From Selenomonadaceae bacterium (GTDB taxonomy: Bacteria; Bacillota; Negativicutes; Selenomonadales; Selenomonadaceae): a stretch of DNA of 64,000 nt. Within the stretch, counting starts at the first letter, position 1. Each line of letters starts with the position of its first letter. Positions 7,089 through 53,990 of the stretch are shown one piece after another. The position numbers and the translations under genes were made by a program. The stretch lies in the NCBI GenBank assembly GCA_017515635.1, contig JAFWFO010000001.1:1162-65161 (forward strand), given 5' to 3'. Under the pieces are notes generated by a model that saw nothing but the letters and a program-made list of their open reading frames with translations, did not search any database and was not told where the DNA came from.

Positions 7089-7100
7089 AGCTTAAAGCTT
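7066..7100 (+). repeat. AAAGCTT heptamer repeat (x4), right arm of the inverted repeat
   Basis: CCTTAAAGCTTAAAGCTTAAAGCTTAAAGCTT. The TAA stop of the enclosed ORF lies inside it. Confidence 0.85.
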
Positions 7101-7123
7101 CGACAACGAGGCAAAAATAACAG

Positions 7124-8520: not shown

Positions 8521-8869
8521 CACAAACGTCGTGCTGCGTTACCTGTTGCGCGACCATCCGAAACAATCAATGCAGGCGAAAAAAGCTGTGGAAATCGGCG
8601 CGGTTGTTTTGCCCGAAGTTTTGGTTGAGACGGCGCACGCGTTGAAAAATGTTTATCGTGTCGACAGACAACACATCGCGGCGAATTTGATGACTTTGCT
8701 AAACGAAGTTGAAGTCGAACGAAAGCCGGTTATGGTTCACGCCGTGGAACTTTATGCCGACTCCCCCGATTTGGATTTTATGGACTGTATTATTTTGGCG
8801 TATTTCGACATTGAAAATATTCGCGTGTTTACCTTTGACCCGAAACTTAATCGCGTTCCGAAGTCTTGA
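8501..8869 (+). CDS. PIN-domain toxin (VapC-like ribonuclease)
   Basis: 122 aa. The N-terminal ILIDTNVVLRYL carries the first acidic residue, followed by E/D positions and a D.MDC motif typical of PIN domains. Confidence 0.7.
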   Translation: MARILIDTNVVLRYLLRDHPKQSMQAKKAVEIGAVVLPEVLVETAHALKNVYRVDRQHIAANLMTLLNEVEVERKPVMVHAVELYADSPDLDFMDCIILAYFDIENIRVFTFDPKLNRVPKS

Positions 8870-8878
8870 GGAGGTATT

Positions 8879-39652: not shown

Positions 39653-39668
39653 ATTGGAGGGTTTGACC

Positions 39669-40355
39669 ATGAAAAAAATTTTTGTCCTTGGCGTCATGTT
39701 GAGCCTGCTTTTCGTCGCGCAGTCGGCTTTCGCAATGACGTTTCAACAGCCCGTCAAGATCGGCAGAATCGGTTTCCCGGTTCAAGCACCGTATCACGGA
39801 TTAATTATTGACGGCGCTAATTATAATGACGGCACGCCTTACCGCGAAAAAAGCAATAAAACAACTTACACGAAAGGCACGGCGCGTTTCGGCGAAGGGA
39901 CGAACGCTCTTTGGTGCAGATATAATTTTGAGCGAAAAAATTCCGCTGATTGTTTCATTAAATTCGGCGGCGCGAATGATTTTGTCTTGACTCAATACAT
40001 CGCTGACAAAGAGATTTTCCGAATCGACAACGACGCAGGCGTCGCGCTCTATGCAAGTTATCATATTTATTGCGTAACCGATTTGAAAATCCTCGGCACG
40101 CGAAAAGATGGCAAATGGGTTGTTTACATTGACAGTAAAAAAATCAGCGATAAATATTTTGGCGGCAAGGATTCTTACAAATTGGACGGCGGCGTTCTCT
40201 ACGAAGTGCCAACCTGCGCGGGAGATACGTTGATTGTTCAATATCGTCGCTGGCATTGGTCAACTAACGGCGGCATATCTGAGCCCGAAGGCGAATTCCG
40301 TTTCAAGTGGGACGACAAGGCGCAGTGGTTCGGCGTCGAGCAGATTGTTTATTGA
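39669..40355 (+). CDS. secreted protein of unknown function, rib-operon paralog 1
   Basis: Signal peptide MKKIFVLGVMLSLLFVAQSAFA|MTFQQPVK, and the C-terminus [21 protein letters not shown]. Paralogous to 41005..41688 and 42440..43162. Confidence 0.8.
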   Translation: MKKIFVLGVMLSLLFVAQSAFAMTFQQPVKIGRIGFPVQAPYHGLIIDGANYNDGTPYREKSNKTTYTKGTARFGEGTNALWCRYNFERKNSADCFIKFGGANDFVLTQYIADKEIFRIDNDAGVALYASYHIYCVTDLKILGTRKDGKWVVYIDSKKISDKYFGGKDSYKLDGGVLYEVPTCAGDTLIVQYRRWHWSTNGGISEPEGEFRFKWDDKAQWFGVEQIVY

Positions 40356-40364
40356 GGTGACGAA

Positions 40365-40991
40365 ATGTTCACTGGGATTGTTGAGGAAGTCGGCAAGCTC
40401 AGAAGTTTGGACGGCGGGCGAATCGAAATTTCTTGCGCGAAAGTTTTGGACGACGTGAAAATCGGCGACAGCATAAACACGAACGGAATTTGCTTGACGG
40501 TCGTCGACTTCGGCGAAAATTTTTTTGCGGCAGACGTAATGCCTGAAACTTTCCGCAAAACTTCGCTTGACGAATTGAAACGCGGCGGCATTGTAAATCT
40601 TGAACGCGCCTTGAAAGTCGGCGACAGATTCGGCGGGCACATCGTCAGCGGGCACATTGACGGCGTCGGAAAAATTTTGAGCATTCGTCCCGAAGGCAAC
40701 GCGGTTTTGATCGACGTGGCGGCAGAAAATTTTTTGCTCCGACAAATCGCGTCGAAAGGTTCCGTTGCGCTTGACGGAATTAGTTTGACGGTCGTGGACG
40801 CGGGCAACGAAAAATTTTCCGTGTCGATGATTCCGCACACTCGCGCCGTCACGAACTTTCAATCTAAGCGCGTCGGCAGTCCCGTCAACATTGAAACGGA
40901 CGTTTTGGCAAAGTATGTCGAACGCTTGCTTAATTTCAAAACTTCCGCAAACGTGACGAAAAATTTTTTGGAGGCGAACGGTTTCATTTAA
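40365..40991 (+). CDS. ribE: riboflavin synthase (alpha chain)
   Basis: MFTGIVEE.G.........I.......L.D.K.GDSI..NG.CLTV, plus the internal duplication (GHIVSGHIDG...DGISLTVV). Confidence 0.93.
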   Translation: MFTGIVEEVGKLRSLDGGRIEISCAKVLDDVKIGDSINTNGICLTVVDFGENFFAADVMPETFRKTSLDELKRGGIVNLERALKVGDRFGGHIVSGHIDGVGKILSIRPEGNAVLIDVAAENFLLRQIASKGSVALDGISLTVVDAGNEKFSVSMIPHTRAVTNFQSKRVGSPVNIETDVLAKYVERLLNFKTSANVTKNFLEANGFI

Positions 40992-41004
40992 GGATGGATT
41001 GATC

Positions 41005-41688
41005 ATGAAAAAATTTTTACTCGGCGTCGTTTTAAGCGTGCTTTTCGTCGCGCAGTCGGCTTTCGCCATGACTTTTCAACAGCCCGTCAAGCTTGGTGAT
41101 TTTGTTTGGAAGCAAGTTCACCATAACAGCTTTGAAATTAAAGGCGCGACTTACAACAGTGGGCAATCGAACGTTGAGCCACGCTCGGGTAGGATTTATT
41201 ATACAAAAGGCGTTGCGCGCTTTGGTGACGGCGATTCGGCGATCTGGTTACACTATAACAAAGAAAATCGTCCTCCTTTTGGAAAACTTGGCGGACAAAA
41301 TTTCAATAACGTCTTGTCTGAAGATTTTTTGGGAACAGGCTACGAAATTTTTTTTATCGGCGAAGAGCGTGGCTTTAAATTTTACGCCATCAGGGGCGGC
41401 TACGACCTTCCTTCCGCTCAATTTCGTTACGAGTACGACATTATAGGGCGCAAGCCGGATGGTACTTGGGTTAAATATCTCAACACGGGAAAACTTTTGA
41501 AGCAGTACATCGGCAAAGATTACGCCTGTTCGATTCAAAACGTTACGACATCGGGCAATACGATCATCATGCAATACAAAATTCTGGAATATAAACTCAG
41601 ACGCGTGACAGACGGTCGTTGCGGCGAACTTCGATTCAAATGGGACGAGACGGCGCAGTGGTTCGGCGTCGAACAAGTGAGGTACTGA
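41005..41688 (+). CDS. secreted protein of unknown function, rib-operon paralog 2
   Basis: Signal peptide ..VLFVAQSAFA|MTFQQPVK, and the C-terminus [21 protein letters not shown]. Confidence 0.8.
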   Translation: MKKFLLGVVLSVLFVAQSAFAMTFQQPVKLGDFVWKQVHHNSFEIKGATYNSGQSNVEPRSGRIYYTKGVARFGDGDSAIWLHYNKENRPPFGKLGGQNFNNVLSEDFLGTGYEIFFIGEERGFKFYAIRGGYDLPSAQFRYEYDIIGRKPDGTWVKYLNTGKLLKQYIGKDYACSIQNVTTSGNTIIMQYKILEYKLRRVTDGRCGELRFKWDETAQWFGVEQVRY

Positions 41689-41689
41689 A

Positions 41690-42424
41690 ATGAAAATTTT
41701 CAAAAAATTAATCGCAGTCGTCGCGGCAATGATTTTTCTGTCGAACACGGCAATCGCTCAACGGCACGAAAGCCCCAAATCTTGGCTGAAATATCTTTCG
41801 GGCGATTGGTACGACAACAACGGCAAGCTTGTCCTGTCGATTCACGACGGCTACATCAACGGTTGCAAAATTTTGTACTGCCAACGCGTGGCGGGTGGAG
41901 GCGGTTTGGCGGGCGGCGATTTTTGTATTTCGGAGGGCGCGGGCAACAGGTTGATTCATCTGTCGTGGAATATTCAACATCAACAATCCGATTCATTGGC
42001 AGTCGACAGGCGGCAAACTCTCCACAAATTTTTTCCATTCCATTTCGAGTCGGTCGGCGGAGTTCATCTGGGCATGACGCGGGACGAAGTCAACAAAAAA
42101 CTCGGCAACGACATCAAGAAAATTTCCAAAAGCGAAGTTACCAGATTAACGGGCGACACTTTCGGTTTTGACGACACATGGTTTGTTGAAAAACTCGGAG
42201 TAATACTGACGTTCGAGGCGGGCAGCGTTGACAGAATAATTCTGTTGAAGTCGAGTAAAAATGTTTTGGAGCATTCGCGCCTGAATTGTTCAAACAGTTT
42301 AAAAGAATTTGCCGCCGCATATCAAAAGCCGCTCCCAAAGAAATATTTAGGCATCGGGCACGGCGAACATATTTCTTTCGGCGAAGGAATGCGTTATATC
42401 ATGCTGTCGAATTACAACAACTGA
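41690..42424 (+). CDS. secreted protein of unknown function (244 aa, unrelated to the paralog family)
   Basis: Signal peptide MKIFKKLIAVVAAMIFLSNTAIA|Q. Its start is 1 nt after the upstream stop. Confidence 0.65.
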   Translation: MKIFKKLIAVVAAMIFLSNTAIAQRHESPKSWLKYLSGDWYDNNGKLVLSIHDGYINGCKILYCQRVAGGGGLAGGDFCISEGAGNRLIHLSWNIQHQQSDSLAVDRRQTLHKFFPFHFESVGGVHLGMTRDEVNKKLGNDIKKISKSEVTRLTGDTFGFDDTWFVEKLGVILTFEAGSVDRIILLKSSKNVLEHSRLNCSNSLKEFAAAYQKPLPKKYLGIGHGEHISFGEGMRYIMLSNYNN

Positions 42425-42439
42425 ACGGAGGTTTTCACC

Positions 42440-43162
42440 ATGAAAAAAATTTTTGTCGCCGTCGTCGTGAGCGTGCTTTTTGTCGCGCAAACCGCTTTGG
42501 CAATGACGTTTCAACAGCCCGTGAAAGTCGGCAGGGTCAGCGGAACACCTCAAGGCGGTTTCAGCATTGACGGCGCATCTTATAACAACGGCACTTCATT
42601 TCAAAACGGGAAATTGGATAAACAATGGGGCAAGCTTTACGAAAAAGGAATTGCCCGTTTCGGTGACGGCGATGCCGCGTTGTACATGCATTACGATTGT
42701 TCGCCGAACAAAAGTCGACAGTATTGGGACGCTTACGCGCCAAAATTCGGTGACAAGGACGCCAAAAGAACTGTTTCATTGTGGGCTGGCGAAGGCGAAA
42801 CCGTTACGATATACACAACAAAAAATGACGGCAATGTCACTTTGTATTTGCTCAGGGGTGAAGGTCCGATAGCGGGAACGACAAATTACATTCTTCTTGG
42901 CAGACGCTCGGACGGGATTTTTGTCAAATATTTCGACTTGGAAGACATAAACATCAAATACTTTGGCTTGCAAAAAAACAAATACGGCACGACGAGAGGA
43001 CGTTTGAGCCCGTGGTATAAAAACCTTCGTTGTCAAGGCGATACGATTATAATCGATTACGAACGTTCACACGGGCGGAGCGGTTACGTCAAAGAGGGCG
43101 AATTCCGTTTCAAGTGGGACGAGGCGGCGCAGTGGTTCGGCGTCGAACAAATTATCTATTGA
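42440..43162 (+). CDS. secreted protein of unknown function, rib-operon paralog 3
   Basis: Signal peptide ..[10 protein letters not shown]|MTFQQPVK, and the C-terminus [21 protein letters not shown]. Confidence 0.8.
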
Positions 43163-43175
43163 GGTGAAAATTTTT

Positions 43176-44369
43176 ATGAGTGAATTTGCAACGATTGAGC
43201 AGGCTATTGACGACATTAAGCGCGGCAAGATGATTGTTGTTGTCGACGACGAAGACCGCGAAAACGAAGGCGACTTGATTGTTGCCGCCGAGACCGTCAC
43301 GCCCGCCGACATAAATTTTATGGCGACGCACGCCAAAGGTTTGATTTGCACGCCCATTGACGGCAAACGCCTTGACGAACTGGAAATCGGGCAGATGGTC
43401 ACCAACAACACCGACAATCACGAAACGGCCTTCACGGTGTCGATTGACGCTTACGACACGGACACGGGCATTTCCGCTTACGAACGCTGTCACACGATTA
43501 AAATGTTGCTTGACCCTGCCGCGAAGTCTTCAAGTTTTCGTCGACCGGGTCACGTCTTCCCGCTACGTTCGGTTGAGGGCGGAGTTTTGCGCCGCGCCGG
43601 TCACACGGAGACGACAACCGACCTTGCGCGATTGGCGGGCTTTTATCCTGCGGGTTTGTGTTGCGAAATTATGGATGACGACGGGCACATGATGCGCACG
43701 GAAAATCTTAAAAAATTCGCGGACAAACACGGGCTGAACATTATCAGTGTTCGGGCGTTGATTGAATATCGCAAGCGCACGGAAAAATTCGTCAAGCAAA
43801 TTGCCGACGTGGATTTTCCCAGCAAGTACGGGCATTTTCGGCTTAAAGCTTATGAAAGCACGCTTGACGGCAAATGTCATCTGGCGATTGTCAAAGGCGA
43901 CGTTGCGGGCAAGTCGAACGTTTTGGTTCGCGTGCATTCGGAGTGCCTGACGGGCGACGCGTTGGGAAGTTTGCGTTGTGATTGCGGCGATCAACTTGCC
44001 ACGGCGCTGAAAAAAATCGACGCGGCGGGCGAAGGCGTTTTGCTTTACATGCGGCAGGAAGGTCGCGGAATCGGACTTGCCAACAAAATTCGGGCTTACG
44101 CACTTCAAGACGCGGGCAAAGACACTGTCGAAGCGAACGTTATTTTGGGATTCAAGCCCGATCTTCGCGATTACGGTATCGGCGCGCAGATTCTTTCCGA
44201 CTTGGGCTTGACGACGATAAAACTTTTGACGAACAATCCCGCCAAACGCGCAGGACTTGAAGGGCACGGCTTGACTATAACCGAACGCGTCCCGATTGTC
44301 ATTGCGCCGACGAAGTTCGATAAAAATTATCTCACCGTCAAAAAAACTAAAATGGGTCACGTATTGTAA
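43176..44369 (+). CDS. ribBA: bifunctional 3,4-dihydroxy-2-butanone-4-phosphate synthase / GTP cyclohydrolase II
   Basis: [11 protein letters not shown] (DHBP synthase), and [20 protein letters not shown] (the GCH II zinc site). Confidence 0.95.
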
Positions 44370-44449
44370 GCTTTTAGCTTATGAGCTTTAAGCTTTAAGT
44401 AAAATTTTCGTCACTCCCTTAAAGCTCAAAGCTTGCAGTTTAAAGCTAA
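44366..44449 (+). repeat. AAGCTTT heptamer-repeat hairpin between ribBA and ribH
   Basis: The arms GAGCTTTAAGCTTTAAG and CTTAAAGCTCAAAGCTT flank a ~18-nt loop. The ribBA stop TAA begins the repeat. Confidence 0.8.
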
Positions 44450-44468
44450 TTTTTCGGAGGCGATTTAC

Positions 44469-44951
44469 TTGAAAATTTACGAAGGCAACATCAGCGGCCG
44501 CGATTTAAAATTTGCGATTGTCGTCGCAAGGTTTAACGAATTCATCACGAGCAAACTTTTGAGCGGCGCGATTGACGCGTTGAAACGTCACGAGACGCCC
44601 GAAGAAAATATTTCCGTCGCATGGGTGCCGGGCGCGTTTGAAATTCCGTTGGTTGCCAAAAAGTTGGCGGAGACCAAAAATTTCGACGCGATAATTTGTC
44701 TGGGCTGTGTGATTCGCGGATCGACAACGCATTATGATTACGTCTGCAACGAAGTTTCCAAAGGCGTGGCTCAAGTTGGTTTGCAAAGCGGCATTCCGAC
44801 AATTTTCGGCGTCGTCACAACCGAAAACATTCAACAGGCGATTGAACGTTCCGGCACGAAAGCCGGCAACAAAGGTTTTGACGCGGCGATTTCAGCAATG
44901 GAAATGGCAAACCTGTTAAAAAATCTTCCGAGCGTCGAAATAAATTTTTGA
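44469..44951 (+). CDS. ribH: 6,7-dimethyl-8-ribityllumazine synthase
   Basis: ..[20 protein letters not shown]........V.WVPGAFE.P......A......DA.ICLG.VIRG.T.HYDYV. TTG start behind GGAGG; the track start is 44433. Confidence 0.93.
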
Positions 44952-45032
44952 GCGATTCTTTCGCGGCGACAAAATTTGAATTGCGACAAGGACGCGTAGC
45001 GTCAACTGTTTGGTTACTTTTTAAAAGTAACC

Positions 45033-45067
45033 AAAAAAACCCTCTCCAAATTCGGAGGGGGCTTTTT
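45033..45067. terminator. bidirectional terminator after ribH and the zinc-ribbon gene
   Basis: CCCTCTCC-loop-GGAGGGGG, flanked by A7 and T5. Confidence 0.75.
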
Positions 45068-45082
45068 CGTTGCAAGTTGACA

Positions 45083-45298
45083 TCAAGATTTTTTCTGTTT
45101 GGCAATGACGCTGACGGTATCTTCGTCTTCATCAATTTCCGCGCCGCAACGCGGACAACATTCGTATTCGGTGCCGTCGGGCAAAGAGCGTCTCCCCTTG
45201 CATTTTTGGCAGAAAATCAGCGAGCAACGTTTGCACTCCAAAATTTCGCCAAAATCTTTGCGCCCGCATTTCGGACAGCTGACATATTCTTTCGCCAT
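45083..45298 (-). CDS. zinc-ribbon protein (71 aa, four CxxC pairs)
   Basis: CPKC..., CKRC..., CQKC... and CPRC, with an acidic tail. Confidence 0.6.
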   Translation of the reverse strand: MAKEYVSCPKCGRKDFGEILECKRCSLIFCQKCKGRRSLPDGTEYECCPRCGAEIDEDEDTVSVIAKQKKS

Positions 45299-45314
45299 GA
45301 TAAATCGCCTCCGT

Positions 45315-45650
45315 TCAATAGTGCGGATTCGCTTTGACGTAATCGACGGGGCGGCTCCAATCGACGTGAACGCCCGTAGCCTCCCAAAGCCGCGTCAAAA
45401 CAATTTTCAAACTCTCTGCGCTTTTGTTGGCATCGAAAGTTTCTTCGGTGAAGTCCAACAGTGTTTCGTGCGGAACTTTTATTTCGTGCGGCGTCGACAA
45501 AAATTCTTCGGCAAGCTTTTTGCCTTCGTCGTCGCCCAAAAAAACTTTTGCGCGTTTTTCCGCTTCGTCGTATTCAACCCAGCCGAGACTTCCTTTGAAA
45601 CTTATCGCCACGCTGAAATTCTCCAAACAAATCAACTCCCTGAAACTCAC
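45315..45650 (-). CDS. hypothetical protein (111 aa)
   Basis: GTG start with no clear RBS, and no recognisable motif. It is preceded by a TTGACG-16-TAAAAT promoter-like sequence. Confidence 0.45.
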   Translation of the reverse strand: MSFRELICLENFSVAISFKGSLGWVEYDEAEKRAKVFLGDDEGKKLAEEFLSTPHEIKVPHETLLDFTEETFDANKSAESLKIVLTRLWEATGVHVDWSRPVDYVKANPHY

Positions 45651-45699
45651 TTAAATATATCTGCCGATAATTTTAGCAAAAAAATTTCAACCGTCAACG

Positions 45700-45733
45700 A
45701 AAAAACCCCCCGACATTTGCCGAAGGGTTTTTT
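45700..45733 (-). terminator. cassette terminator (copy 1 of 3)
   Basis: The minus strand reads CCCTTCG-GCAAATGT-CGGGGGG plus a T-run. The same design occurs at 46107 and 46683. Confidence 0.75.
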
Positions 45734-45750
45734 GTTTGCGTTGCGACTTA

Positions 45751-45966
45751 TTAACTGGTTATCCAGTCCCAAGCCTGTTTAATCTTGTCACCAAGTGCAC
45801 TGCCGCCCGCCACGTTGTCGAGTTCCTCGTCGCTGAGTTGCTCCAAATCGTAGCCTTCAGCCTTCGCCAGCGCGATTGCTTGCGACTCGTTTTCCACGCC
45901 TTTGAATTTTGCGGCAAATTCCGCGTCGCTCTCGATTCTTGATTTAAATTCCTTGAAACCTTTCAT
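45751..45966 (-). CDS. Nif11-type double-glycine leader peptide precursor (16-aa core SALGDKIKQAWDWITS)
   Basis: MKGFKEFKSRIESDAEFAAKFKGVENESQAIALAKAEGYDLEQLSDEELDNVAGG|SALGDKIKQAWDWITS. It has the Nif11 N-terminal helix pattern and the LSDEEL..VAGG cleavage motif. Confidence 0.75.
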   Translation of the reverse strand: MKGFKEFKSRIESDAEFAAKFKGVENESQAIALAKAEGYDLEQLSDEELDNVAGGSALGDKIKQAWDWITS

Positions 45967-46009
45967 GATTATCATCCTCTAAATTGTAAATTGTTTCTTT
46001 CTGCACCTT

Positions 46010-46036
46010 ATACGTTGGAGTTCCGATTTCGTTACA
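46010..46036 (-). promoter_or_regulatory. ECF-sigma-like promoter TGTAAC-16nt-CGTAT (upstream of the Nif11 precursor)
   Basis: The minus strand reads TGTAAC (46036-31), a 16-nt spacer, then CGTAT (46014-10). A sigma-A-like TTGCGG-16-TAAAGT lies just upstream. Confidence 0.45.
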
Positions 46037-46074
46037 CACTTTAGCAGAAAATTTTTCAGCCGCAAAGAATTTTT

Positions 46075-46107
46075 CATTACGCATTACGAATTACGCATTA
46101 CGCATTG
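46075..46107 (-). repeat. GCGTAAT heptamer tandem repeat (4-5 units)
   Basis: The minus strand reads CAATGCGTAATGCGTAATTCGTAATGCGTAATG, with a 7-nt period. Confidence 0.85.
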
Positions 46108-46144
46108 AAAAAACCCTCCGACATTTGCCGAAGGGCTTTTTTTA
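46107..46144 (-). terminator. cassette terminator (copy 2 of 3)
   Basis: The minus strand reads CCCTTCG-GCAAATGT-CGGAGGG plus T6. Confidence 0.75.
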
Positions 46145-46161
46145 CTGCCGAGACGATTTTT

Positions 46162-46533
46162 TTACCATTTCCAATCTTTTTCCGTCATGTAGTGTCCGGT
46201 AACTTTCATTGCGTGCTGACGCGCCTGTTCCTGCGTAACTTGCTGACCGTTGATGAAATATTTATTGGGGGCTCCTTCACCGATTATATAACCCGAATGA
46301 AGTTCTGCCTTGACTCCGACTGTTGCCCAAGCTTTTGTGATTTCTTCGCCGTGCGATTGATTTCTAATTCGCCATTCACCATAGCGGTCGCATGAGCCGT
46401 TCAAACTGTTCAAAAAGCGGCTGTCATCTGCCATTTCAGTTGTAGTGCCGCCCGCGACCCGGTCGAGTTCCTTGTCGTTCAACTTTTCCAGCTCGTCGTT
46501 GATTTTTTTGAGGTTTTCTTCACGTGTTGCCAT
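46162..46533 (-). CDS. double-glycine-leader secreted protein, paralog A (123 aa; 94-aa core)
   Basis: MATREENLKKINDELEKLNDKELDRVAGG|TTTEMADDSRFLNSL.... AGGAG RBS. Own promoter and terminator. Confidence 0.75.
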   Translation of the reverse strand: MATREENLKKINDELEKLNDKELDRVAGGTTTEMADDSRFLNSLNGSCDRYGEWRIRNQSHGEEITKAWATVGVKAELHSGYIIGEGAPNKYFINGQQVTQEQARQHAMKVTGHYMTEKDWKW

Positions 46534-46624
46534 TGTTATCAATCTCCTTTGATTTGATTAAAAATTTTTTTCGGCAGTGCTGTCAATTCAGCGTGTCCCT
46601 TGCGGCTCTGTTTTTCTGACTGTT

Positions 46625-46651
46625 ATACGACGTGAAACGCATTTCGTTACA
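46625..46651 (-). promoter_or_regulatory. ECF-sigma-like promoter TGTAAC-16nt-CGTAT (upstream of paralog A)
   Basis: The minus strand has TGTAAC (46651-46) and CGTAT (46629-25). A sigma-A-like TTGACG-16-TAAATT lies at 46680-46653. Confidence 0.45.
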
Positions 46652-46682
46652 GAATTTAGCAGAAATTTTTTGTCCGTCAACG

Positions 46683-46716
46683 AAAAAAACCTCCGACGTG
46701 TGCCGAAGGGATTTTT
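46683..46716 (-). terminator. cassette terminator (copy 3 of 3)
   Basis: The minus strand reads CCCTTCG-GCACACGT-CGGAGG plus T7. Confidence 0.75.
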
Positions 46717-46746
46717 AACGATTGCGACCGTGCGCCGCATTTTGAT

Positions 46747-47088
46747 TCAACCCCACGCAACCGATCTTGCATGAGCGTACGCTTCGTCGCGGGAAACATC
46801 CTTGCCATTGACTTTATATTCGTTGTCGTAAACCGCGCCGCCGTGCCACTTAAACTCAACGCCGTATCTTGCCCATTCTTCCTTGATGAGATTTTCAGTA
46901 ACTGTACCGGGCGTAAACGCAAGTGCAGCTTCGTTGATTTCATTAAAATCGGGATTCAACGTGTGCAGAAAATGACTGTCGTCAGCGGTTTGATGCCAAG
47001 TGCCGCCCGCGACCTCTTCAAGCTGTTCGTCGCTCAATTTTTCGAGTTCGTCATTGATTTTTTTGAGATTTTCTTCGCGTGTTGCCAT
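46747..47088 (-). CDS. double-glycine-leader secreted protein, paralog B (113 aa; 84-aa core)
   Basis: MATREENLKKINDELEKLSDEQLEEVAGG|TWHQTADDSHFLHTL...WHGGAVYDNEY...SRDEAYAHA. Confidence 0.75.
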   Translation of the reverse strand: MATREENLKKINDELEKLSDEQLEEVAGGTWHQTADDSHFLHTLNPDFNEINEAALAFTPGTVTENLIKEEWARYGVEFKWHGGAVYDNEYKVNGKDVSRDEAYAHARSVAWG

Positions 47089-47122
47089 TTGAGATTTCTC
47101 CTTTCATTGAAGGTTCCGAAGA

Positions 47123-47464
47123 TTATTTACCGAAAATGCTTTTCGCGTGGTTGATAGCTTCATCGCGGGAGACTTTTCTCGTGCCAATGTAGTATTCGTT
47201 GTCGTAAATCGCGCCGCCGTGCCAAATGAAGTTTATGCCGCAAGCTTTCCACGCCGCTTGAACTTCTTCCTCTTTGCTTGAGCCGGCTGTAAATGCGAGT
47301 TCAGCACCGGTGTACTTTTCGCACAAGTCCGCCAAGTTATGAAGAAATTCACTGTCATCAGCAGTTTGACCCCAAGTGCCGCCCGTGATTTGTTCAAGTT
47401 GTTCGTCGCTCAACTGTTCGAGCTTGGCATTGATTTTTTTGAAGTTTTCTTCGCGTGTTGCCAT
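47123..47464 (-). CDS. double-glycine-leader secreted protein, paralog C (113 aa; 84-aa core)
   Basis: MATREENFKKINAKLEQLSDEQLEQITGG|TWGQTADDSEFLHNL...WHGGAIYDNEY...SRDEAINHA. Confidence 0.75.
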   Translation of the reverse strand: MATREENFKKINAKLEQLSDEQLEQITGGTWGQTADDSEFLHNLADLCEKYTGAELAFTAGSSKEEEVQAAWKACGINFIWHGGAIYDNEYYIGTRKVSRDEAINHAKSIFGK

Positions 47465-47482
47465 GTTAATCAGTCTCCTTTC

Positions 47483-47851
47483 TTATTCGCGACCCAAGAG
47501 TTTCGAGGCGTAAGTCCATGCCTGTGATTGAGTAAGTTTTTCGCCGGTATCCTTTACGACATAATCGTTAGTGGGACCAAGAATATGTTCGGTAAAATCA
47601 ATGCCCAGCACACCCCAAGCTTTTTTGACATCGTCCGGACTCGCGGTGCGAGTTCTGATAATTCCCAACAACATCGTATGAACATCAGGTCTTTTAGGGG
47701 CATCGGCGGTTCCCTTCAAAAGAGCGTTCAGAAAGGAAGCGTCTCTTATGGTTTGGGTACGAGTGCCGCCCGCGACTTGTTCAAGCTGTTCGTCGCTCAA
47801 CTGTTCGAGTTGCTCGTTAATTTTTTTGAGATTTTCTTCGCGTGTTGTCAT
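47483..47851 (-). CDS. double-glycine-leader secreted protein, paralog D (122 aa; 93-aa core)
   Basis: MTTREENLKKINEQLEQLSDEQLEQVAGG|TRTQTIRDASFLNAL.... ATG 47851 lies behind AAGGAGA. The longer track ORF (to 48022) only translates the promoter and leader. Confidence 0.75.
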   Translation of the reverse strand: MTTREENLKKINEQLEQLSDEQLEQVAGGTRTQTIRDASFLNALLKGTADAPKRPDVHTMLLGIIRTRTASPDDVKKAWGVLGIDFTEHILGPTNDYVVKDTGEKLTQSQAWTYASKLLGRE

Positions 47852-47938
47852 GTTGAACGGTCTCCTTTCCGATAAAAGTTTAATTCGCTGTGCTGTCAAT
47901 TCAGCTTGTCCCTTGCGGATTGTTTCTTTCTGCATGTT

Positions 47939-47965
47939 ATACGCCGTGAATCCGATTTCGTTACG
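47939..47965 (-). promoter_or_regulatory. ECF-sigma-like promoter CGTAAC-16nt-CGTAT (upstream of paralogs D-C-B)
   Basis: The minus strand has CGTAAC (47965-60) and CGTAT (47943-39). A sigma-A-like TTGACC-16-TAAAGT lies at 47994-47967 and overlaps the RND stop codon. Confidence 0.45.
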
Positions 47966-47990
47966 CACTTTAGCAAAAAATTTTTTGCGG

Positions 47991-50900
47991 TCAATTTTTC
48001 CCATTGAGGTAAACTGCCGCATACATGACGGGCAAAACCAACAACGTCAAGACCGTCGCCACGAGCAAGCCGCCCGCGATTGCAACCGCCATCGGTGCCC
48101 AAAAGACGCTTAACATCAACGGAAACATGCCGAGAATCGCCGCCGCCGCCGTCAACATTATCGGGCGGAAACGCAAAATTGCCGAATCGATTATCGCGTC
48201 GTGAAGATTTTCGCCCGCCGTGACGTGTTGTTGAATTTGGTCGATTAAAATTACCGAGTTGCGAATTATCATGCCCGACAGCGCGATAACGCCGAGTTCC
48301 GCCACGAAGCCCAAAGGTTTCGACAAAATTATCAGCGCGAAGATAACGCCGATTAATCCGAGCGGCGCGGTCAAAAGCGTCAACACCATTGCTTTGGCGT
48401 CGTTGAGCTGAAACATTAGCAACGTCATTATCACGAACACGACAAGCGGCAACATTGCGGCGAGATGTCCCGTCGATTTTTCGGATTGCTCCAAATCGCC
48501 CGCAGGTTCAATCGAATAACCGAGCGGCAAATCTTTTCGCAAGTCTTCCGTTGCGTCGAAGGCTTTTTTGGTTGCGTCGTTCGCCGTGCCCGATAAAATA
48601 TTCGCCTGCACAGTAATTGTCGGTTTCAAGTCGCGTCGGACAATCAAGCCGTATTCCGCGTCGAAAGAAATTTTTGCAATTTGTTCAAGTGGCACGTAAC
48701 CCGCCGCGCCGAGATAAATCGGCAAATTTTTCAACGCGGCAAGATTATTTCTGTCCGCCGCTGCAAGTCTCAAATCAATGTCAATCGTCCTGTCGCCCGT
48801 GTAAAATTCTGCCGACTTCGCGCCCGTGATTTCCGTGTACAGTGTGGACTTGACGGCTTGACTTGAAACGCCGAGCGCACGAAGTTTATCCTGGTCAAGC
48901 TCAATGCGCACGACTTTAGATTTTTCGTTCCAGTCAAGGTGAACGTTCACGGCGTTTGGATTTTCGGCAACGCGGTCTGAAACTTTTTCGGCGAGCGCGT
49001 GAACTTTTTCAATGTCCGTGCCGGAAACGCGCAACATAATCGGATAATCGGCGGGCGGCCCCGTTTGAATCAGCTGAATATTTGTCCGCACGTTCGGAAA
49101 ATTTTCGGCAAGTTCGTTACGGATTTTGTAAATCAAATCGTCGCGAACGTCTTCGGATTTTGCGGTAACGACGAATTTTGCGCGATTGTCGGCGTCGGTT
49201 TTCGGCGCGATAGTCAACACGAAACGCGGCGTGTCTTTGCCGACATAGCAGGCGAAATTTTCAATGTTATCGCGTTCAGTCTCCAGAAATTTCGTGAACT
49301 CGTCGACTTCGGCTTGAGTGGCGGCGATTGAAGAACCTTCGGGCAAACGCATTTCGATTAAAATTTCGGGACGAATCGACGGCGGGAAAAATTCCAGCTG
49401 CACGAATCCTGCCGCGAAAATTGTCACTGCGAAACTTGCGATTGTTCCGGCGAGTACCAAAATTTTGTTGTCCAAAAAAATTTCAAGCACGCGCCGAAAA
49501 CTTCTGTAAAAACGCCCGTCGTAAAGTTCGGCGGGAAATTTTTTTTCGACTTTGATTAAGTGCCAACCGAACAGCGGCGCGACCATAACCGAGACAATCC
49601 ACGACAGCAACAGCGCGATTGACACGACCCAAAACATGTCGCGGCAAAATTCGCTTGCCATGCCTTTCGCGAACGCCACGGGGATAAAGCCCGCGCAGGT
49701 TATCAGCGTGCCCGTCAGCATCGGTTTTGCCGTGACGTTGAACGCGTGACAGGCGGCGTCGAATCGTGACAGCCCGCGCTCAAGTTGCACGCTCATCATT
49801 TCCACGGCGATTATCGCGTCGTCGACGAGCAACCCCAACGCGATTATCAGCGAGCCGAGCGAAACTTTGTGCAGGTCAATTCCGAGCACGAACATAAAGC
49901 AAAATGTCCCCGCCAAAACCAGCGGAATGCAACCCGCGACGACTAAACCCGTTCGCACGCCGAGACTTGCGAAACTCACGCCCAAAACGATTACGATTGC
50001 CAAAACTAAAGTTTCAATGAATTCGCTGATTGATTCTTCGACGACTTCAGGTTGATTTGATACTTGATGAAGTTCCAAACCCAGCGGCAATTCGGATTGA
50101 ATTTCTTCCGTCATGACGCGCAGATTTTCGCCGAGTCGCAAAATATTTCCGCCTTCTTCCATTGACACGGCAATTCCAATCGCGGGCTTGCCGTCGAAAA
50201 ACATTTTCGGTTCGGGCGGGTCAATGTAACGTCGCTCAACTTTGGCAATGTCTGCTAGCCGAAAAATTTTCCCGTTCGCATTAATCGGCAGATTTTTTAT
50301 CGCATCCACGTCGTCGAAAATTCCCGTCACGCGCAAATAAACGTTGTCGCTTGAAGTTTCGACCATGCCGGCGGGCGTCATCGAATTTTGCGCGGCGAGC
50401 GTGTTTGAAATTATTTGCGGACTGATTCCGAGTTCCGAAAGTTTGACGTGCTCAATTTCGACGTAAACAATTTCGGATTGCACGCCGACGAGTTCAATTT
50501 TTTTCACGTCGTGAACGTCAAGAAGCAAGCGGCGAATATTTTCCGCGTGTTGTCGAAGTTCTTCATAAGTGAAGCCGTCGCCCGTCAACGCGTAAATCGA
50601 GCCGAAAACTTCGTCGTAAGTGTCATTAAAAAAAATTCCCGCAACACCTTCGGGCAGTTCGCTTTTGATGTCCGAGCAATAATTTCGCACGTCGCGCCAC
50701 GTCGGACGAATCTGCGCGGTCGGCAATTCGTCATTCAGCTCAACATAAATCACGGTGGAATTCGGGCGCGTTTCGCTCCGCAAATTGTCAAGTCCGGGAA
50801 TATCCTGCAATTTTTTTTCGAGCTTGTCGGTAACCTGTCGTTGCATTTCGTCGGCGGTTGCGCCCGGCCAATACGCGGCGACAATCATTTGACGGACGAC

Positions 50901-51023
50901 AAATTTCGGATCTTCCATGCGCCCAAGTTTGAAGTAAGAAAAAATCCCGCCGATAACCGCGACAAAAATAAAATACCAAATCAGCGAACGATTTTTGAGC
51001 GACAGTTCCGTTAGATTTCTCAA
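47991..51023 (-). CDS. RND-family efflux transporter permease (AcrB/CzcA superfamily)
   Basis: About 1010 aa with a 12-TM layout and two large periplasmic loops. The start is placed at TTG 51023 behind AGGTGA ((M)RNLTELSLKNRSLIWYFIF...). The track extension to 51122 runs through an intergenic repeat. Confidence 0.88.
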   Translation of the reverse strand: MRNLTELSLKNRSLIWYFIFVAVIGGIFSYFKLGRMEDPKFVVRQMIVAAYWPGATADEMQRQVTDKLEKKLQDIPGLDNLRSETRPNSTVIYVELNDELPTAQIRPTWRDVRNYCSDIKSELPEGVAGIFFNDTYDEVFGSIYALTGDGFTYEELRQHAENIRRLLLDVHDVKKIELVGVQSEIVYVEIEHVKLSELGISPQIISNTLAAQNSMTPAGMVETSSDNVYLRVTGIFDDVDAIKNLPINANGKIFRLADIAKVERRYIDPPEPKMFFDGKPAIGIAVSMEEGGNILRLGENLRVMTEEIQSELPLGLELHQVSNQPEVVEESISEFIETLVLAIVIVLGVSFASLGVRTGLVVAGCIPLVLAGTFCFMFVLGIDLHKVSLGSLIIALGLLVDDAIIAVEMMSVQLERGLSRFDAACHAFNVTAKPMLTGTLITCAGFIPVAFAKGMASEFCRDMFWVVSIALLLSWIVSVMVAPLFGWHLIKVEKKFPAELYDGRFYRSFRRVLEIFLDNKILVLAGTIASFAVTIFAAGFVQLEFFPPSIRPEILIEMRLPEGSSIAATQAEVDEFTKFLETERDNIENFACYVGKDTPRFVLTIAPKTDADNRAKFVVTAKSEDVRDDLIYKIRNELAENFPNVRTNIQLIQTGPPADYPIMLRVSGTDIEKVHALAEKVSDRVAENPNAVNVHLDWNEKSKVVRIELDQDKLRALGVSSQAVKSTLYTEITGAKSAEFYTGDRTIDIDLRLAAADRNNLAALKNLPIYLGAAGYVPLEQIAKISFDAEYGLIVRRDLKPTITVQANILSGTANDATKKAFDATEDLRKDLPLGYSIEPAGDLEQSEKSTGHLAAMLPLVVFVIMTLLMFQLNDAKAMVLTLLTAPLGLIGVIFALIILSKPLGFVAELGVIALSGMIIRNSVILIDQIQQHVTAGENLHDAIIDSAILRFRPIMLTAAAAILGMFPLMLSVFWAPMAVAIAGGLLVATVLTLLVLPVMYAAVYLNGKN

Positions 51024-51029
51024 GCGCAA

Positions 51030-51118
51030 TTCACCTGCCAGAAAATTTTTCAACGTATGCGAACGAAAACAAGTCAAAGTTATTCCAACTGTTCCGCCGC
51101 TTTTAAAGCGGCCGCACG
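51030..51118 (-). repeat. dispersed intergenic element, copy C
   Basis: The minus strand reads GCGGCCGCTTTAAAAGCGGCGGAACAGTTGGAATAACT..., between the MFP and RND genes. Confidence 0.75.
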
Positions 51119-52168
51119 TCAATCACCCGTCCTGACTTGCTGCCCGTCGCGCAGTTTGTGCACGCCGGCAACGACAACTTTATCGCCCGACTTCAGCCCG
51201 CGCACGCGCACGGAATTTTCGTCGAACGCGGAAACTTCAACTTGACGCAACGAAACTTTATCGCCGTCGACAAGCCAAACTTGAGCAACTCCGCCCGTTT
51301 GATAAATCGCGCTGAGAGGCACAACAATCGCGCTTGAAGAAATTTTTGACGCCGGTGAAACGCTTGCCGTCATGCCGAGCCGAATATTGGGCACGTCGGG
51401 CAAAGAAATTTTCACGGCGAACGTTCGGGACGCGGGATCAGCCATCGGGGAAATTTCGCGAACGGAACCGCTTACACCGTCGCCCGTCGCCCAAAATTTT
51501 ATCGTGACGCGTTGACCGATTTGCACAGAAGAAATTTTGTTTTCGGGAATGTTGACGACGACATCAAAATCATTTGTCTGCACGAGCGTCAAAACGGTTT
51601 GCCCCGCCGCAACGACTTGACCGATTTCCGCGTTGACGTTCGAGATGACCCCGTCGGCGTTCGCGGTTAAATGCGTGTAACCCAGCGCGTTTTGACTTTG
51701 GCGGGCTTGAGCAACTGCGGCGTCGTAAGTTGCCAAAGCGGCGTCGTATTGAGTTTTGTATTGATCGAGCACGGCGGCGGCTATCGCTTCGGATTTAAAA
51801 AGTTCCGTATATCTGTCGAGATTCGCTTTGGCAAGTTGCAGTTGAGCTTGAGCGGAGGCAACCTGCGCGGCGGCGGAATGCGATTGTTCGACGATGTCTT
51901 TCGGGTCGAGCGTCATTAAAATTTCGCCCGCGTGAACCAAGTCGCCCGTTTGCACGTCGCGAGAAATAATTTTCCCGCTGACTTGAAACGACATATTTGT
52001 TTCGTAACGGCCTTTGACGACGCCCGAATAATTTTCTTCGTCGGCGGTGTCGGAAAGTTTGACTTGCTGAACTTTGACGACGGGCGGTTTCATCGGAACA
52101 ACAACTTCGTTGCACCCCGTCACAAAAAAACTCGCCGTGATTATTCCCGTCACAAAAAAATTACGCAT
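51119..52168 (-). CDS. efflux RND periplasmic adaptor (membrane fusion protein), probable lipoprotein
   Basis: Lipobox FFVTGC, with barrel-sandwich, coiled-coil and beta-barrel order typical of the HlyD_D23 family. The start is ambiguous (ATG 52168 or GTG 52180) because it lies in a heptamer repeat. Confidence 0.85.
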   Translation of the reverse strand: MRNFFVTGIITASFFVTGCNEVVVPMKPPVVKVQQVKLSDTADEENYSGVVKGRYETNMSFQVSGKIISRDVQTGDLVHAGEILMTLDPKDIVEQSHSAAAQVASAQAQLQLAKANLDRYTELFKSEAIAAAVLDQYKTQYDAALATYDAAVAQARQSQNALGYTHLTANADGVISNVNAEIGQVVAAGQTVLTLVQTNDFDVVVNIPENKISSVQIGQRVTIKFWATGDGVSGSVREISPMADPASRTFAVKISLPDVPNIRLGMTASVSPASKISSSAIVVPLSAIYQTGGVAQVWLVDGDKVSLRQVEVSAFDENSVRVRGLKSGDKVVVAGVHKLRDGQQVRTGD

Positions 52169-52190
52169 TACGCATTCCACATTCCTAATT
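52160..52190 (-). repeat. GCGTAAT / AATTAGG-like heptamer repeats at the gamma-CA/MFP junction
   Basis: The minus strand reads AATTAGGAATGTGGAATGCGTAATGCGTAAT. Confidence 0.7.
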
Positions 52191-52195
52191 GCTTT

Positions 52196-52738
52196 TCAGT
52201 CGTCCATCCACGCGCTCATGCCCATATTAACGACGTATTCTTTCGCGCACTCGTAATAATGCATCGCTGAAGTTCTCAACGCGGCAATTTCGTCTTGACG
52301 CAAGGCACGCATAATTTTTGCGGGGTTGCCGAAAACCAAAGAGTTATTCGGAATTTTTTTGTACTGCGTGATGACGGTGCCCGCGCCGATAATGCAGTTG
52401 TCGCCAATTTCGGAGTAACCCAAAATAATTGAGCCCATACCGATTAAACAGTCATTGCCGATTGAGCGGCAGTGAATAATCGCGTTGTGTCCGACAGTGA
52501 CATAATTGCCGATAACCGTCGGCTCGTCGCCCATGACGTGCACGGTGCAGTTGTCTTGAATATTCGTGTAGCAGCCGATTCGCACGGGCTGAAAATCTCC
52601 GCGCACGATGACACCAAACCAAATACTTGAGCCTGCACCGATTGTCACGTCTCCGACAACAGACGCACTCGGCGCAACAAAAACGTCCTTAGCGATTTGC
52701 GGTTGCTTGCCCTTGTACGGCAAAATGACAGGTTCCAT
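52196..52738 (-). CDS. gamma-carbonic-anhydrase-family / hexapeptide-repeat protein (YrdA/PaaY-like)
   Basis: Left-handed beta-helix repeats and the I.DNC.VHV....P..IG..VTVGHNA..H pattern. Confidence 0.85.
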   Translation of the reverse strand: MEPVILPYKGKQPQIAKDVFVAPSASVVGDVTIGAGSSIWFGVIVRGDFQPVRIGCYTNIQDNCTVHVMGDEPTVIGNYVTVGHNAIIHCRSIGNDCLIGMGSIILGYSEIGDNCIIGAGTVITQYKKIPNNSLVFGNPAKIMRALRQDEIAALRTSAMHYYECAKEYVVNMGMSAWMDD

Positions 52739-52742
52739 TTAA

Positions 52743-53990
52743 TCAAACCTCCGTAAAAATTTTGAACGTCGAATAAATTTTTTTGAAACGGCGAACGCGT
52801 TCGTCGTGAATCCATTTGCCGATTTCGACGCCTTTAAGTTCGGGCGGGGCATGTCGTCCGCCGATTTTCAACAGCTCGGAAATAATTTCTTCCGCGTGCT
52901 CAAGATACGGCGGCAGTCCGTGATTGTCCGCGTTGATTATGTCGCAGAAATCCCGCACGGAAATTTTCTGCGCGTACATGCCCAAAAGCAAGTCGACGAT
53001 TTTACCCGCGTGGCTCAAGTGCGGGGCGCGCATGTGTTCGCGAATAACGAATTCGGCAGATTTTTTCCAGTCGCTCGGCAAAATCATTCGTTCGCCCATT
53101 TGCTTTAAAACGTCAAGCCCGCGTCGTTCGTGTTTGTAATGGTGCGGCAACATGTCCGGCGGCGTGGTGCCTTTGCCAACGTCGTGCATCAACGCCGCGA
53201 ATCGCACAATCGGTTTCGGGTTGACTTTCGCCACTTCGTCCAAAATATTCAGCGTGTGTTCGTAAGCGTCGCCTTCGGGGTGAAATTCCGTCGGTTGAGT
53301 TTTGCCGCGCAGATTTTCAATTTCGGGGAAAGTTATCGCCAACAAATCCGCCCGCTCCAAACTGCGGAAAAAAATCGACGGCTTATCGGTTTTGAGCGCG
53401 GTCGCCAGTTCGTCGAAAATTCTTTCGGTCGGTTCGTTGGCAACTTCTTCGCCGCAAAGTCTCATAGCGTCAATAGTTTCCGCCGAAATTTCAAAATTAA
53501 ATTGAGCCGCCTGCCGCGCCGCCCGCAACGCACGAACGGGGTCGTCGGTGAAATGTTCGCTGACCGCACGAATTTTTTTGTTTAAAACGTCTTCGCGCCC
53601 GCCGAACGGGTCGACAAGTTCGCCCGACAAAATTTCAATCGCCATTGCGTTAATCGTCGTGTCGCGCCGAAATAAATCTTGTTCAATCGTCACGTTCGGC
53701 GAAAACAAAATTTCAAAGCCGCGATAACCCGTGCCGATTTTTCTTTCCGTGCGTGCGAAAGCAACTTCGCAATGCTCGCCGTCAATTTCAATCGAATACA
53801 CGGGGAAACTTTTGCCGAATTTATCCGCGTCGGGGAAAATTTCCGTGAAAGTTTTTTCGTCAATGCCCGTGACGCAATAATCGCGGTCGTGAGCTTCGAC
53901 GTTGCGAAATTTGTCGCGAACCGCGCCGCCGACAAGGTAAGCCGTGCCGCCCGCCTCGCGAATTTTTTTTGCAAAATCAAGTTCAGTCAT
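52743..53990 (-). CDS. cca: CCA-adding tRNA nucleotidyltransferase with a C-terminal HD domain
   Basis: GGAVRD.....,.DRD head-domain motifs, RRD.TINA, and an HD motif (LMHDVGK). ATG 53990 lies behind GGAGA. Confidence 0.88.
   Translation of the reverse strand: MTELDFAKKIREAGGTAYLVGGAVRDKFRNVEAHDRDYCVTGIDEKTFTEIFPDADKFGKSFPVYSIEIDGEHCEVAFARTERKIGTGYRGFEILFSPNVTIEQDLFRRDTTINAMAIEILSGELVDPFGGREDVLNKKIRAVSEHFTDDPVRALRAARQAAQFNFEISAETIDAMRLCGEEVANEPTERIFDELATALKTDKPSIFFRSLERADLLAITFPEIENLRGKTQPTEFHPEGDAYEHTLNILDEVAKVNPKPIVRFAALMHDVGKGTTPPDMLPHHYKHERRGLDVLKQMGERMILPSDWKKSAEFVIREHMRAPHLSHAGKIVDLLLGMYAQKISVRDFCDIINADNHGLPPYLEHAEEIISELLKIGGRHAPPELKGVEIGKWIHDERVRRFKKIYSTFKIFTEV

Follow-up and report, generated by a model that had tools for sequence, protein, structure and literature searches.

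Five adjacent genes with double-glycine leaders in a ruminant-gut Selenomonadaceae genome: the putative cargo-only part of a scattered secretion regulon

We analyzed a 64-kb stretch of DNA (the window) from a metagenome-assembled genome (MAG) of a Selenomonadaceae bacterium in which five genes (g1 to g5, minus strand, 45751-47851) encode small proteins that begin with a leader ending in a double glycine (GG). The explanation that best accounts for the results, and that we consider probable as a whole, is that the cluster is the cargo-only part of a secretion regulon widespread in rumen Selenomonadaceae: that is, the cargo genes are probably switched on by a specialised sigma factor of extracytoplasmic function (ECF) type, and the cargo is probably carried by a dedicated exporter encoded elsewhere in the genome. 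[quoted passage not shown]

An earlier note on this DNA had described five GG-leader precursor genes adjoining a membrane-fusion protein (MFP) gene and a resistance-nodulation-division (RND) permease gene, and all five open reading frames (ORFs) are confirmed in that place. The cluster is organized as three transcription units, g5-g4-g3, g2, and g1, each with a near-identical block at its start and a near-identical terminator at its end:

47937-47964, minus strand: P1, ECF-sigma-type box GTAAC-N16-CGTATAA, ahead of g5-g4-g3
47890-47918, minus strand (second copy at 46577-46605): insert of ~30 nt in the 5' untranslated region (5'UTR), CCGCAAGGGACAAGCTGAATTGACAGCAC
47483-47851, minus strand: g5, GG-leader cargo, 122 aa (29 + 93), with Shine-Dalgarno AGGAGA before the ATG
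47123-47464, minus strand: g4, GG-leader cargo, 113 aa (29 + 84)
46747-47088, minus strand: g3, GG-leader cargo, 113 aa (29 + 84)
46683-46710, minus strand: intrinsic terminator of the g5-g4-g3 unit, repeat family D4
46623-46650, minus strand: P2, ECF-type box, ahead of g2
46162-46533, minus strand: g2, GG-leader cargo, 123 aa (29 + 94), with C-terminal tail HYMTEKDWKW
46108-46135, minus strand: intrinsic terminator behind g2
46008-46035, minus strand: P3, ECF-type box, ahead of g1
45751-45966, minus strand: g1, Nif11-type precursor, 71 aa (55-aa leader ending NVAGG + 16-aa core SALGDKIKQAWDWITS)
45700-45727, minus strand: intrinsic terminator behind g1

The ORF of g1 extends over 45751-45975; the ATG at 45966, which is preceded by a Shine-Dalgarno sequence and gives the same 71 aa as the public gene call, is probably the true start. 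Aligned to g2 as reference, the four larger proteins are 37-45% identical, and the core motifs that the earlier note had ascribed to all four are fully present in g3 and g4 and only partly present in g2 and g5. The product of g3 is identical to MBR2518206.1 (locus tag IKE46_00245; 'hypothetical protein'; Selenomonadaceae MAG, ruminant gut). At the DNA level the leader-coding segment is a direct repeat in five copies (family D2). A 7-nt tandem repeat (TGCGTAA, four copies; 46077-46104, minus strand) lies between the g2 terminator and the g1 promoter.

The leaders identify all five proteins as GG-leader precursors and one of them as Nif11-type, as had been proposed. The 29-aa consensus M(A/T)TREENxKKINxxLExLxDxxLxx(V/I)(A/T)GG holds for g2 to g5 upon alignment, with M1, T3-N7, K9-N12, L15, E16, L18, D20, L23, G28, and G29 invariant. 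All five genes read L-S-D-E-(E/Q)-L-x-x-(V/I)-(A/T)-G-G or a near variant, which fits the PCAT recognition rule (L at -12, S at -11, L at -7, V/I at -4, and G at -2 and -1), recognition being through the hydrophobic leader residues at -12, -7, and -4 (PMC6959990). The g1 protein, with its Cys-free 16-aa core, exceeds the cut-offs of both curated Nif11 models, by a narrow margin for TIGR03798 (32.8 bits vs. 32.3) and more clearly for PF07862 (29.2 vs. 23.8). The other four fall below the TIGR03798 cut-off (three score 12-15.5 bits, and g4 is not listed), match only model positions 45-68, corresponding to the GG-proximal segment, and are not Nif11 members; scores with the 15-position GG-leader model TIGR01847, at 12.4-15.2 bits, are just under its cut-off of 15.7.

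The same leader is joined to many unrelated cores (120 ORFs in 48 sequence sources), comprising several families of ~80-95 aa and numerous short cores of 19-40 aa. At the related locus L042, the core that follows a g1-type leader is an unrelated one of 70 aa, with the same promoter ahead of the gene, and a second leader subtype, M..EKIL.DE.LsDEELDNVAGG, alternates with the first inside the same clusters. One type of short core, FYARSN(V/S)GDV(K/E)… (19-36 aa), occurs with the same leader and promoter at L011, L015, L017 (e.g., 770-1054), L027, and L028, has internal repeats (…RILHVRDEQSRIIHVR) in some genomes, and could be a signal peptide or another kind of product.

Related genomes contain a candidate exporter. 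A scan of species-representative genomes yielded 45 loci with cargo genes, all but two of them from Selenomonadaceae, Selenomonadales, or Quinella MAGs, and in at least eight MAGs the cargo genes are spread over two or three contigs. L022 comes from a MAG of red-deer rumen; here five Nif11-type precursor genes adjoin a gene that has the same leader and promoter, and ~3 kb from that gene is a PCAT of 735 aa that has C39 peptidase, ABC membrane, and ABC ATPase domains and scores 1001.7 bits vs. a cut-off of 853.3 with TIGR03796; the next gene (ABC2) scores 751 vs. 709 with TIGR03797. At L054 the gene string is an RND-type adaptor (MFP), a TIGR03794 protein (217.6 bits vs. 156.2), a TIGR03796 protein, a TIGR03797 protein, and an ECF sigma factor, with all three TIGRFAM matches above cut-off and with no cargo gene near the string. 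The same four transport genes are present at L052 and L055. The exporter PCAT has more than 100 variants, 66-97% identical, every named one of which is from Selenomonadaceae and carries the NCBI name 'NHLP family bacteriocin export ABC transporter peptidase/permease/ATPase subunit'.

MAG RGIG8298 contains both parts of the system on a single contig, JAGABT010000016.1, with the exporter operon at ~446 kb and the cargo genes (L023) at ~97 kb, ~340 kb apart. The proposition, considered in the earlier note, that homologs never co-occur with PCAT-type exporters therefore fails, both at L022, where the leader is 3 kb from a TIGR03796 PCAT, and in RGIG8298. Precursor genes are often far from export genes in NHLP/Nif11 systems (Haft et al. 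2010, PMC2887384). The lack of an exporter beside the precursors thus ceases to look paradoxical, since such systems keep their cargo genes far from the transporter; by analogy with its relatives, the genome analyzed here would export its cargo in trans.

The cores form a family that, as the earlier note had stated, is not recognised: models of Pfam and NCBIfam, sequence relatives in the PDB, and structural matches all gave nothing significant. Neither Pfam nor NCBIfam produced a match to the cores above cut-off, the Pfam set searched being one without PF28158.1. Two homologs (P0013 and P0014) carry a precomputed match to PF28158.1, and this apparently very recent Pfam entry may already cover part of the core family. 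For g3 there are 340 homologs, every named one of which is 'hypothetical' and from Selenomonadaceae or Quinella. With a core-only profile searched against 1.84 billion representative proteins, we find 437 matches at E <= 0.001 (clusters at 50% identity), mostly from ruminant-gut Selenomonadaceae. Among the best 150 of these 437 matches, all proteins are 67-167 aa long, the core starts after a short N-terminal extension, and the core is never inside a larger protein.

Modelling with AlphaFold2 on the full-length g3 alignment gave a disordered leader of low confidence (predicted local distance difference test, pLDDT, ~54) and a core of high confidence, and the core modelled alone reached a pLDDT of 93.1 and a predicted template-modelling score (pTM) of 0.83. 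The predicted fold is a compact alpha/beta domain with three helices, a three-stranded sheet, and a C-terminal helix. Foldseek comparison of the full-length model with the PDB gave a best E of 0.39 with TM < 0.4, and comparison with BFVD gave a best E of 0.46; the core-only model (pLDDT 93) gave a best E of 0.4 vs. the PDB, and the core sequence profile gave a best E of 0.19 vs. PDB sequences, so that none of these comparisons reached E <= 0.001. The cores are hydrophilic (grand average of hydropathy, GRAVY, -0.4 to -0.9), have a family median pI of ~6, contain few Cys (0-2), and are not Ser/Thr-rich. Because they are hydrophilic, are predicted to be folded, and have few Cys, the cores are, as far as the models indicate, small soluble proteins, neither membrane-active peptides nor Cys/Ser/Thr-rich cores of peptides that are ribosomally synthesized and then post-translationally modified (RiPPs).

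The same core also occurs behind a different export signal. At least five of the best 143 core-family representatives have a classical Sec signal peptide in place of the GG leader, made up of a start rich in K/R, a hydrophobic segment at least 12 residues long, and an Ala-rich cleavage region, and such Sec-dependent versions exist as lone genes. For one of them, the neighbor on the contig is a SulP gene 79-85% identical to Oscillospiraceae genes, and we presume that this Oscillospiraceae-like contig comes from a single-membrane Firmicute. Selenomonadaceae belong to the Negativicutes, which are Firmicutes that have an outer membrane. Because the core is found with a Sec signal in a presumed single-membrane bacterium and with a PCAT leader in a two-membrane bacterium, the sequences imply that the core domain must work outside the cytoplasm.

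The contrary hypothesis, mentioned in the earlier note, is one of intracellular action, with the 'leader' conserved as a structural helix. Nothing beyond the absence of a nearby exporter speaks for this hypothesis, and four results contradict it: family members carry Sec signal peptides, the same leader stands on unrelated cores, the leader is predicted with low confidence while the core folds alone, and the leader adjoins a PCAT at L022. We consider intracellular action hardly credible.

The same properties bear on the hypothesis that the genes encode RiPP precursors, the cores of which are modified before export by enzymes encoded elsewhere, as for prochlorosins. The classical role of Nif11/NHLP-type leaders is in RiPP precursors that are served by unlinked enzymes (PMC2887384), and a radical-SAM/SPASM gene lies 6 kb from the exporter operon of L055. 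However, the cores have 0-2 Cys and no enrichment in Ser or Thr, they are predicted to fold confidently as unmodified globular domains, the Sec-dependent homologs have no leader for a modifying enzyme, and no modification enzyme recurs near the clusters. Modification of this kind accordingly appears quite improbable.

The transcription units have a promoter signature in common. The window contains exactly three perfect copies of GTAAC-N16-CGTATAA, all in the cluster and all on the minus strand; as a control, a scan allowing one mismatch gives about one match in shuffled sequence. In 1.33 Mb of related loci there are 68 boxes with invariant spacing, vs. an estimated chance count of less than one. 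An automatic start-finder places a GG-leader ORF behind at least 58 of the 68, and inspection by eye does likewise for most of the other ten. The peaks of information content are TGTAACGAAAT, CGTATAA, and, downstream, cAGAAA, and a variable spacer lies between them; on sequence grounds this is the profile of a two-box promoter and not that of a palindromic operator. A spacing of 16 nt between AAC and CGT boxes is the hallmark of promoters recognized by ECF sigma factors, an example being Bacillus subtilis SigW (TGAAAC-N16-CGTATA).

A candidate sigma factor is encoded with the exporter in two relatives. The last gene of the exporter string at L022 and at L054 encodes an ECF sigma factor of 185-186 aa (TIGR02937, 106-112 bits vs. 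42.9; best sub-models BldN, SigW, and SigX), and at L022 this gene overlaps the ABC2 stop codon. Sigma homologs 38-40% identical are found inside the L013 cargo cluster and beside the L020 cargo gene. We conclude that GTAAC-N16-CGTATAA is likely to be an ECF-type promoter. Autoregulation of the sigma gene was considered and rejected: no ECF box lies upstream of the exporter operons, which have a sigma70-like promoter. Directly behind the sigma homolog of L013, and overlapping the cargo gene that follows, is an 87-aa ORF (13086-13349, plus strand) with a degenerate leader-like LDDKELNWVVAAG; it might encode an anti-sigma factor or a regulatory partner.

An alternative hypothesis is that transcription is driven by a sigma70 promoter (TTGACx-16-TAAAxT, with an extended -10 element) and that GTAAC...CGTATAA serves as an operator or leader-RNA element. 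Immediately upstream of the box, hexamers of sigma70 type with a TG motif are present at all three promoters in the window and at 35 of the 68 boxes overall. At P1 the segment upstream of the box consists of an A/T-rich element and TTGACC-16-TAAAGT (47967-47994), overlapping the RND stop codon, and a fourth hexamer copy, without an ECF box, lies at 45670-45697, ahead of a 111-aa ORF (45315-45650). Against the sigma70 hypothesis, the 33 of 68 boxes that have no hexamers, including all of those in L013, where boxes are kept and the upstream hexamers are absent, retain the fixed GTAAC-N16-CGTATAA spacing; the AAC/CGT boxes and their 16-nt spacing agree with the ECF consensus, as for SigW; ECF sigma genes co-localize with the system at four independent places; and the GTAAC...CGTATAA segment is not an inverted repeat. 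The sigma70 hypothesis is on balance improbable.

The 5'UTR insert (CCGCAAGGGACAaGCTGAATTGACAGCAC) is common to seven other loci (L003, L005, L007, L012, L015, L033, and L035), where it accompanies a subset of the cargo genes. Its predicted structure is weak and not convincing (two very small hairpins of -6 kcal/mol, with a single compensatory change, found in L012), and an Rfam search of 44500-53000 at a permissive threshold returned only chance-level matches and no known leader RNA.

Taken together with established PCAT biochemistry, the relatives suggest the following mechanism. The ECF sigma factor encoded by the last gene of the exporter operon in some relatives would turn on the scattered cargo genes. 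The C39 domain of an unlinked NHLP/Nif11-type PCAT (TIGR03796) would bind the amphipathic leader through positions -4, -7, and -12, and the C39 peptidase would cleave after Gly-Gly. The PCAT would act with its partner ABC protein (TIGR03797), with membrane-fusion proteins (TIGR03794-type), and presumably with an outer-membrane channel; the unfolded 84-94-aa core would cross both membranes and would fold outside the cell into a small hydrophilic alpha/beta domain. The envelope type suggests that passage across the outer membrane would be by way of the fusion proteins and a putative TolC-like channel. PCAT1 transports an unfolded 66-aa cargo and has a cavity of ~15,000 cubic angstroms (PMC6959990), and by our estimate a cavity of that size should hold 84-94 aa.

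Several observations weigh against this explanation. The MAG's own exporter was not found: there is no C39-ABC transporter among the large ORFs scanned in the 64-kb window or in the 10 kb of contig beyond the window start, and of 20 Selenomonadaceae PCAT accessions compared with MBR2518206 none is in this MAG's range. The MAG's sigma factor was likewise not found in the window or the 10 kb beyond. The sigma gene is missing beside two of the four exporter operons examined (L052 and L055), no anti-sigma factor was identified, and about half of the boxes (the 35 of 68 noted above, including all three in the window) are also preceded by sigma70-like hexamers. In being hydrophilic and acidic to neutral, the cores differ from most class II bacteriocins and microcins, and no immunity gene appears to accompany the cargo genes, which is unusual for bacteriocins.

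Analysis of the gene neighborhoods bears on what else belongs to the system. When all ORFs lying 4 kb or less from a cargo gene in the 45 loci were clustered, no non-cargo family was found in more than five loci, so the cargo genes have no conserved partner for immunity, modification, or transport; among the same ORFs we found no cognate receptor or two-component system. Together with the ORF scans of the window, these results uphold the earlier statement that no PCAT, modification enzyme, or membrane immunity gene is nearby. The cargo clusters consist of cargo genes alone, in varied chromosomal contexts and often next to toxin-antitoxin modules. The genes upstream of the cluster in the window are the RND pair:

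47991-51122, minus strand: RND permease, AcrB-type (ACR_tran, E 3.9e-165)
51119-52180, minus strand: RND adaptor (MFP; TIGR01730, 257.6 bits vs. 94.9), with lipobox-like N-terminus FVTGC

No outer-membrane factor gene adjoins the pair. The earlier note had asked whether this pump provides export or self-protection; the hypothesis would be that it moves the mature proteins over the outer membrane or shields the producer from them. In favor of this, the pair adjoins the cluster on the same strand, the sequence upstream of g5-g4-g3 at P1 overlaps the RND stop codon, the arrangement is kept at L007, and the L027 cluster has another RND pair 2 kb away. However, L007 is merely a syntenic close relative (93% identity) and is the only one of the 45 loci with the orthologous pair beside cargo genes, the L027 pair is unrelated (21% identity), and RND genes are absent from the other 43 loci, so that their occurrence near cargo in two of 45 is about what is expected by chance from RND abundance. 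Moreover, the lineage has a dedicated exporter with its own membrane-fusion proteins, and RND pumps are not known to move proteins of 9-10 kDa. A role of the pump in export or self-protection is thus very improbable, and we judge the pair, from its distribution, to be an ordinary efflux pump and a bystander, not part of the system. Because cargo genes are habitually distant from their transporter, the pump should not be annotated as part of a bacteriocin cluster.

For the secreted cores we purely infer a role in competition between bacteria, as unmodified bacteriocin-like proteins, and hold it at somewhat below an even chance. High copy number, rapid divergence of the cores behind a constant leader, and a crowded rumen habitat point to this role as the most probable one. 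The main alternative is that the proteins are secreted as proposed and are non-toxic, serving as cell-cell signals, adhesion or matrix factors, or binding proteins, with the short-core members perhaps being pheromones. No immunity gene stands beside any cluster, the cores are globular, hydrophilic, and acidic to neutral with no membrane-active character, and the Sec-dependent versions are lone genes, all of which is consistent with a non-toxic function; for the best-studied comparable PCAT cargo, CtA, function is not addressed in the report on its transporter (PMC6959990). Many divergent paralogs in each genome behind a constant leader are, however, a pattern typical of antagonistic peptides (Haft et al. 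2010, PMC2887384), and no cognate receptor or two-component system is nearby. We regard a non-toxic role as possible and on the unlikely side.

Comparison with known systems shows which properties are shared and which are not. Prochlorosins of marine cyanobacteria are the textbook case of an NHLP/Nif11 system. As in NHLP/Nif11 systems, a conserved GG-ending leader is followed by hypervariable cores, each genome has large paralogous precursor families, and precursors are often distant from export genes (PMC2887384); in addition, g1 is a formal member of TIGR03798, and the exporter of the relatives passes all three TIGRFAM cut-offs. In contrast to NHLP/Nif11 systems, four of the five leaders here are just 29 aa, corresponding to the last third of a Nif11 leader and below the model cut-off, the 84-94-aa cores are hydrophilic and predicted to be folded instead of being short Cys/Ser/Thr-rich peptides, no modifying enzyme is associated, and the genes share an ECF-type promoter.

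The PCAT1/CtA system of Clostridium thermocellum also has a small protein as substrate, CtA comprising a 24-aa GG leader and a 66-aa cargo, and the mechanism proposed here, in which the leader alone would be recognized by way of -12, -7, and -4 and the cargo would be moved unfolded, is that of PCAT1 (PMC6959990). It differs from the present system in that the cargo here is larger (84-94 aa), is encoded by many genes, and is unlinked to the exporter, and in that the host here has two membranes and an exporter that includes a second ABC protein as well as membrane-fusion proteins. The resemblance to class II microcins (e.g., microcin V of Enterobacterales) that had been remarked upon earlier stands for size and leader: a GG leader, a product of up to ~10 kDa that here is putatively unmodified, and a two-membrane producer that would use a PCAT and a membrane-fusion protein for export, as for microcins. 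It does not extend to the character of the core, since class II microcins typically are Gly-rich and hydrophobic, whereas the cores here are hydrophilic, with a compact helix-and-sheet alpha/beta domain, and have no sequence similarity to them; and microcin genes adjoin exporter and immunity genes, whereas here none recurs in more than five of 45 loci.

Control of peptide genes by an ECF sigma factor, through AAC/CGT-like boxes, is a property of the lantibiotic clusters of actinomycetes (MibX/MibW for microbisporicin and PspX/PspW for planosporicin). Those clusters are single and compact and have an anti-sigma factor; in contrast, in the relatives studied here the sigma gene ends the exporter operon, the presumed targets are scattered, and no anti-sigma factor is seen. 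Literature searches for the core family or for ECF-controlled PCAT systems in Selenomonadaceae returned nothing specific.

If the proposed wiring is correct, an ECF sigma factor that is co-transcribed with an NHLP-type PCAT, apparently without an anti-sigma factor, couples the exporter to dozens of cargo genes, and the position of the sigma gene at the end of the exporter operon makes this coupling testable. The signature GTAAC-N16-CGTATAA offers a means of locating every cargo gene of the regulon in these genomes, including the short ones that gene callers miss. The core family has a confidently predicted compact fold without a known structural match, and current annotation for it is 'hypothetical' throughout. 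We advance tentatively the broader possibility that the cores define a new fold family of unmodified ~85-aa secreted proteins, which would be a previously unrecognized class of protein bacteriocins or intercellular effectors of gut and rumen Firmicutes, with a scattered regulon coupling ECF sigma and PCAT and with a Sec-dependent version in single-membrane relatives. Among the abundant fermenters of the rumen are Selenomonadaceae and Quinella, which are linked with low-methane phenotypes, and for that reason factors that they secrete for competition or signaling would be of practical interest.

Other features of the window merit brief mention. Downstream of the cargo cluster are the 111-aa ORF, which encodes an acidic protein (45315-45650, minus strand), and an ORF for a 71-aa zinc-ribbon protein with four CxxC motifs (45083-45298, minus strand). 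Neither protein matches any family; the pair recurs only at L017 (2361-2915; 81% and 89% identical), in a non-syntenic position behind a different cargo cluster.

On the plus strand, three paralogs of ~230-240 aa (39654-40355, 40999-41688, and 42440-43162) have Sec-type signal peptides (…LLFVAQSAFA/MTFQQPVK), share a C-terminus ending in (I/V).Y, and have no Pfam match. Interspersed with them are the riboflavin genes ribE (40365-40991), ribBA (43164-44369), and ribH (44433-44951), and a fourth protein with an apparent signal peptide and no Pfam match (41690-42424, plus strand) is encoded in their midst. Near the start of the window, a mur/dcw cell-wall cluster is interrupted by small toxin-antitoxin-like genes (HicB-like, 23S_rRNA_IVP/bAvd, and RelB + PIN), the positions concerned being ~3780-4170, ~6845-7216, ~8370-9000, and 8879-11221. 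In this mur/dcw cluster, MurC is fused to D-Ala-D-Ala ligase in one ORF of 780 aa.

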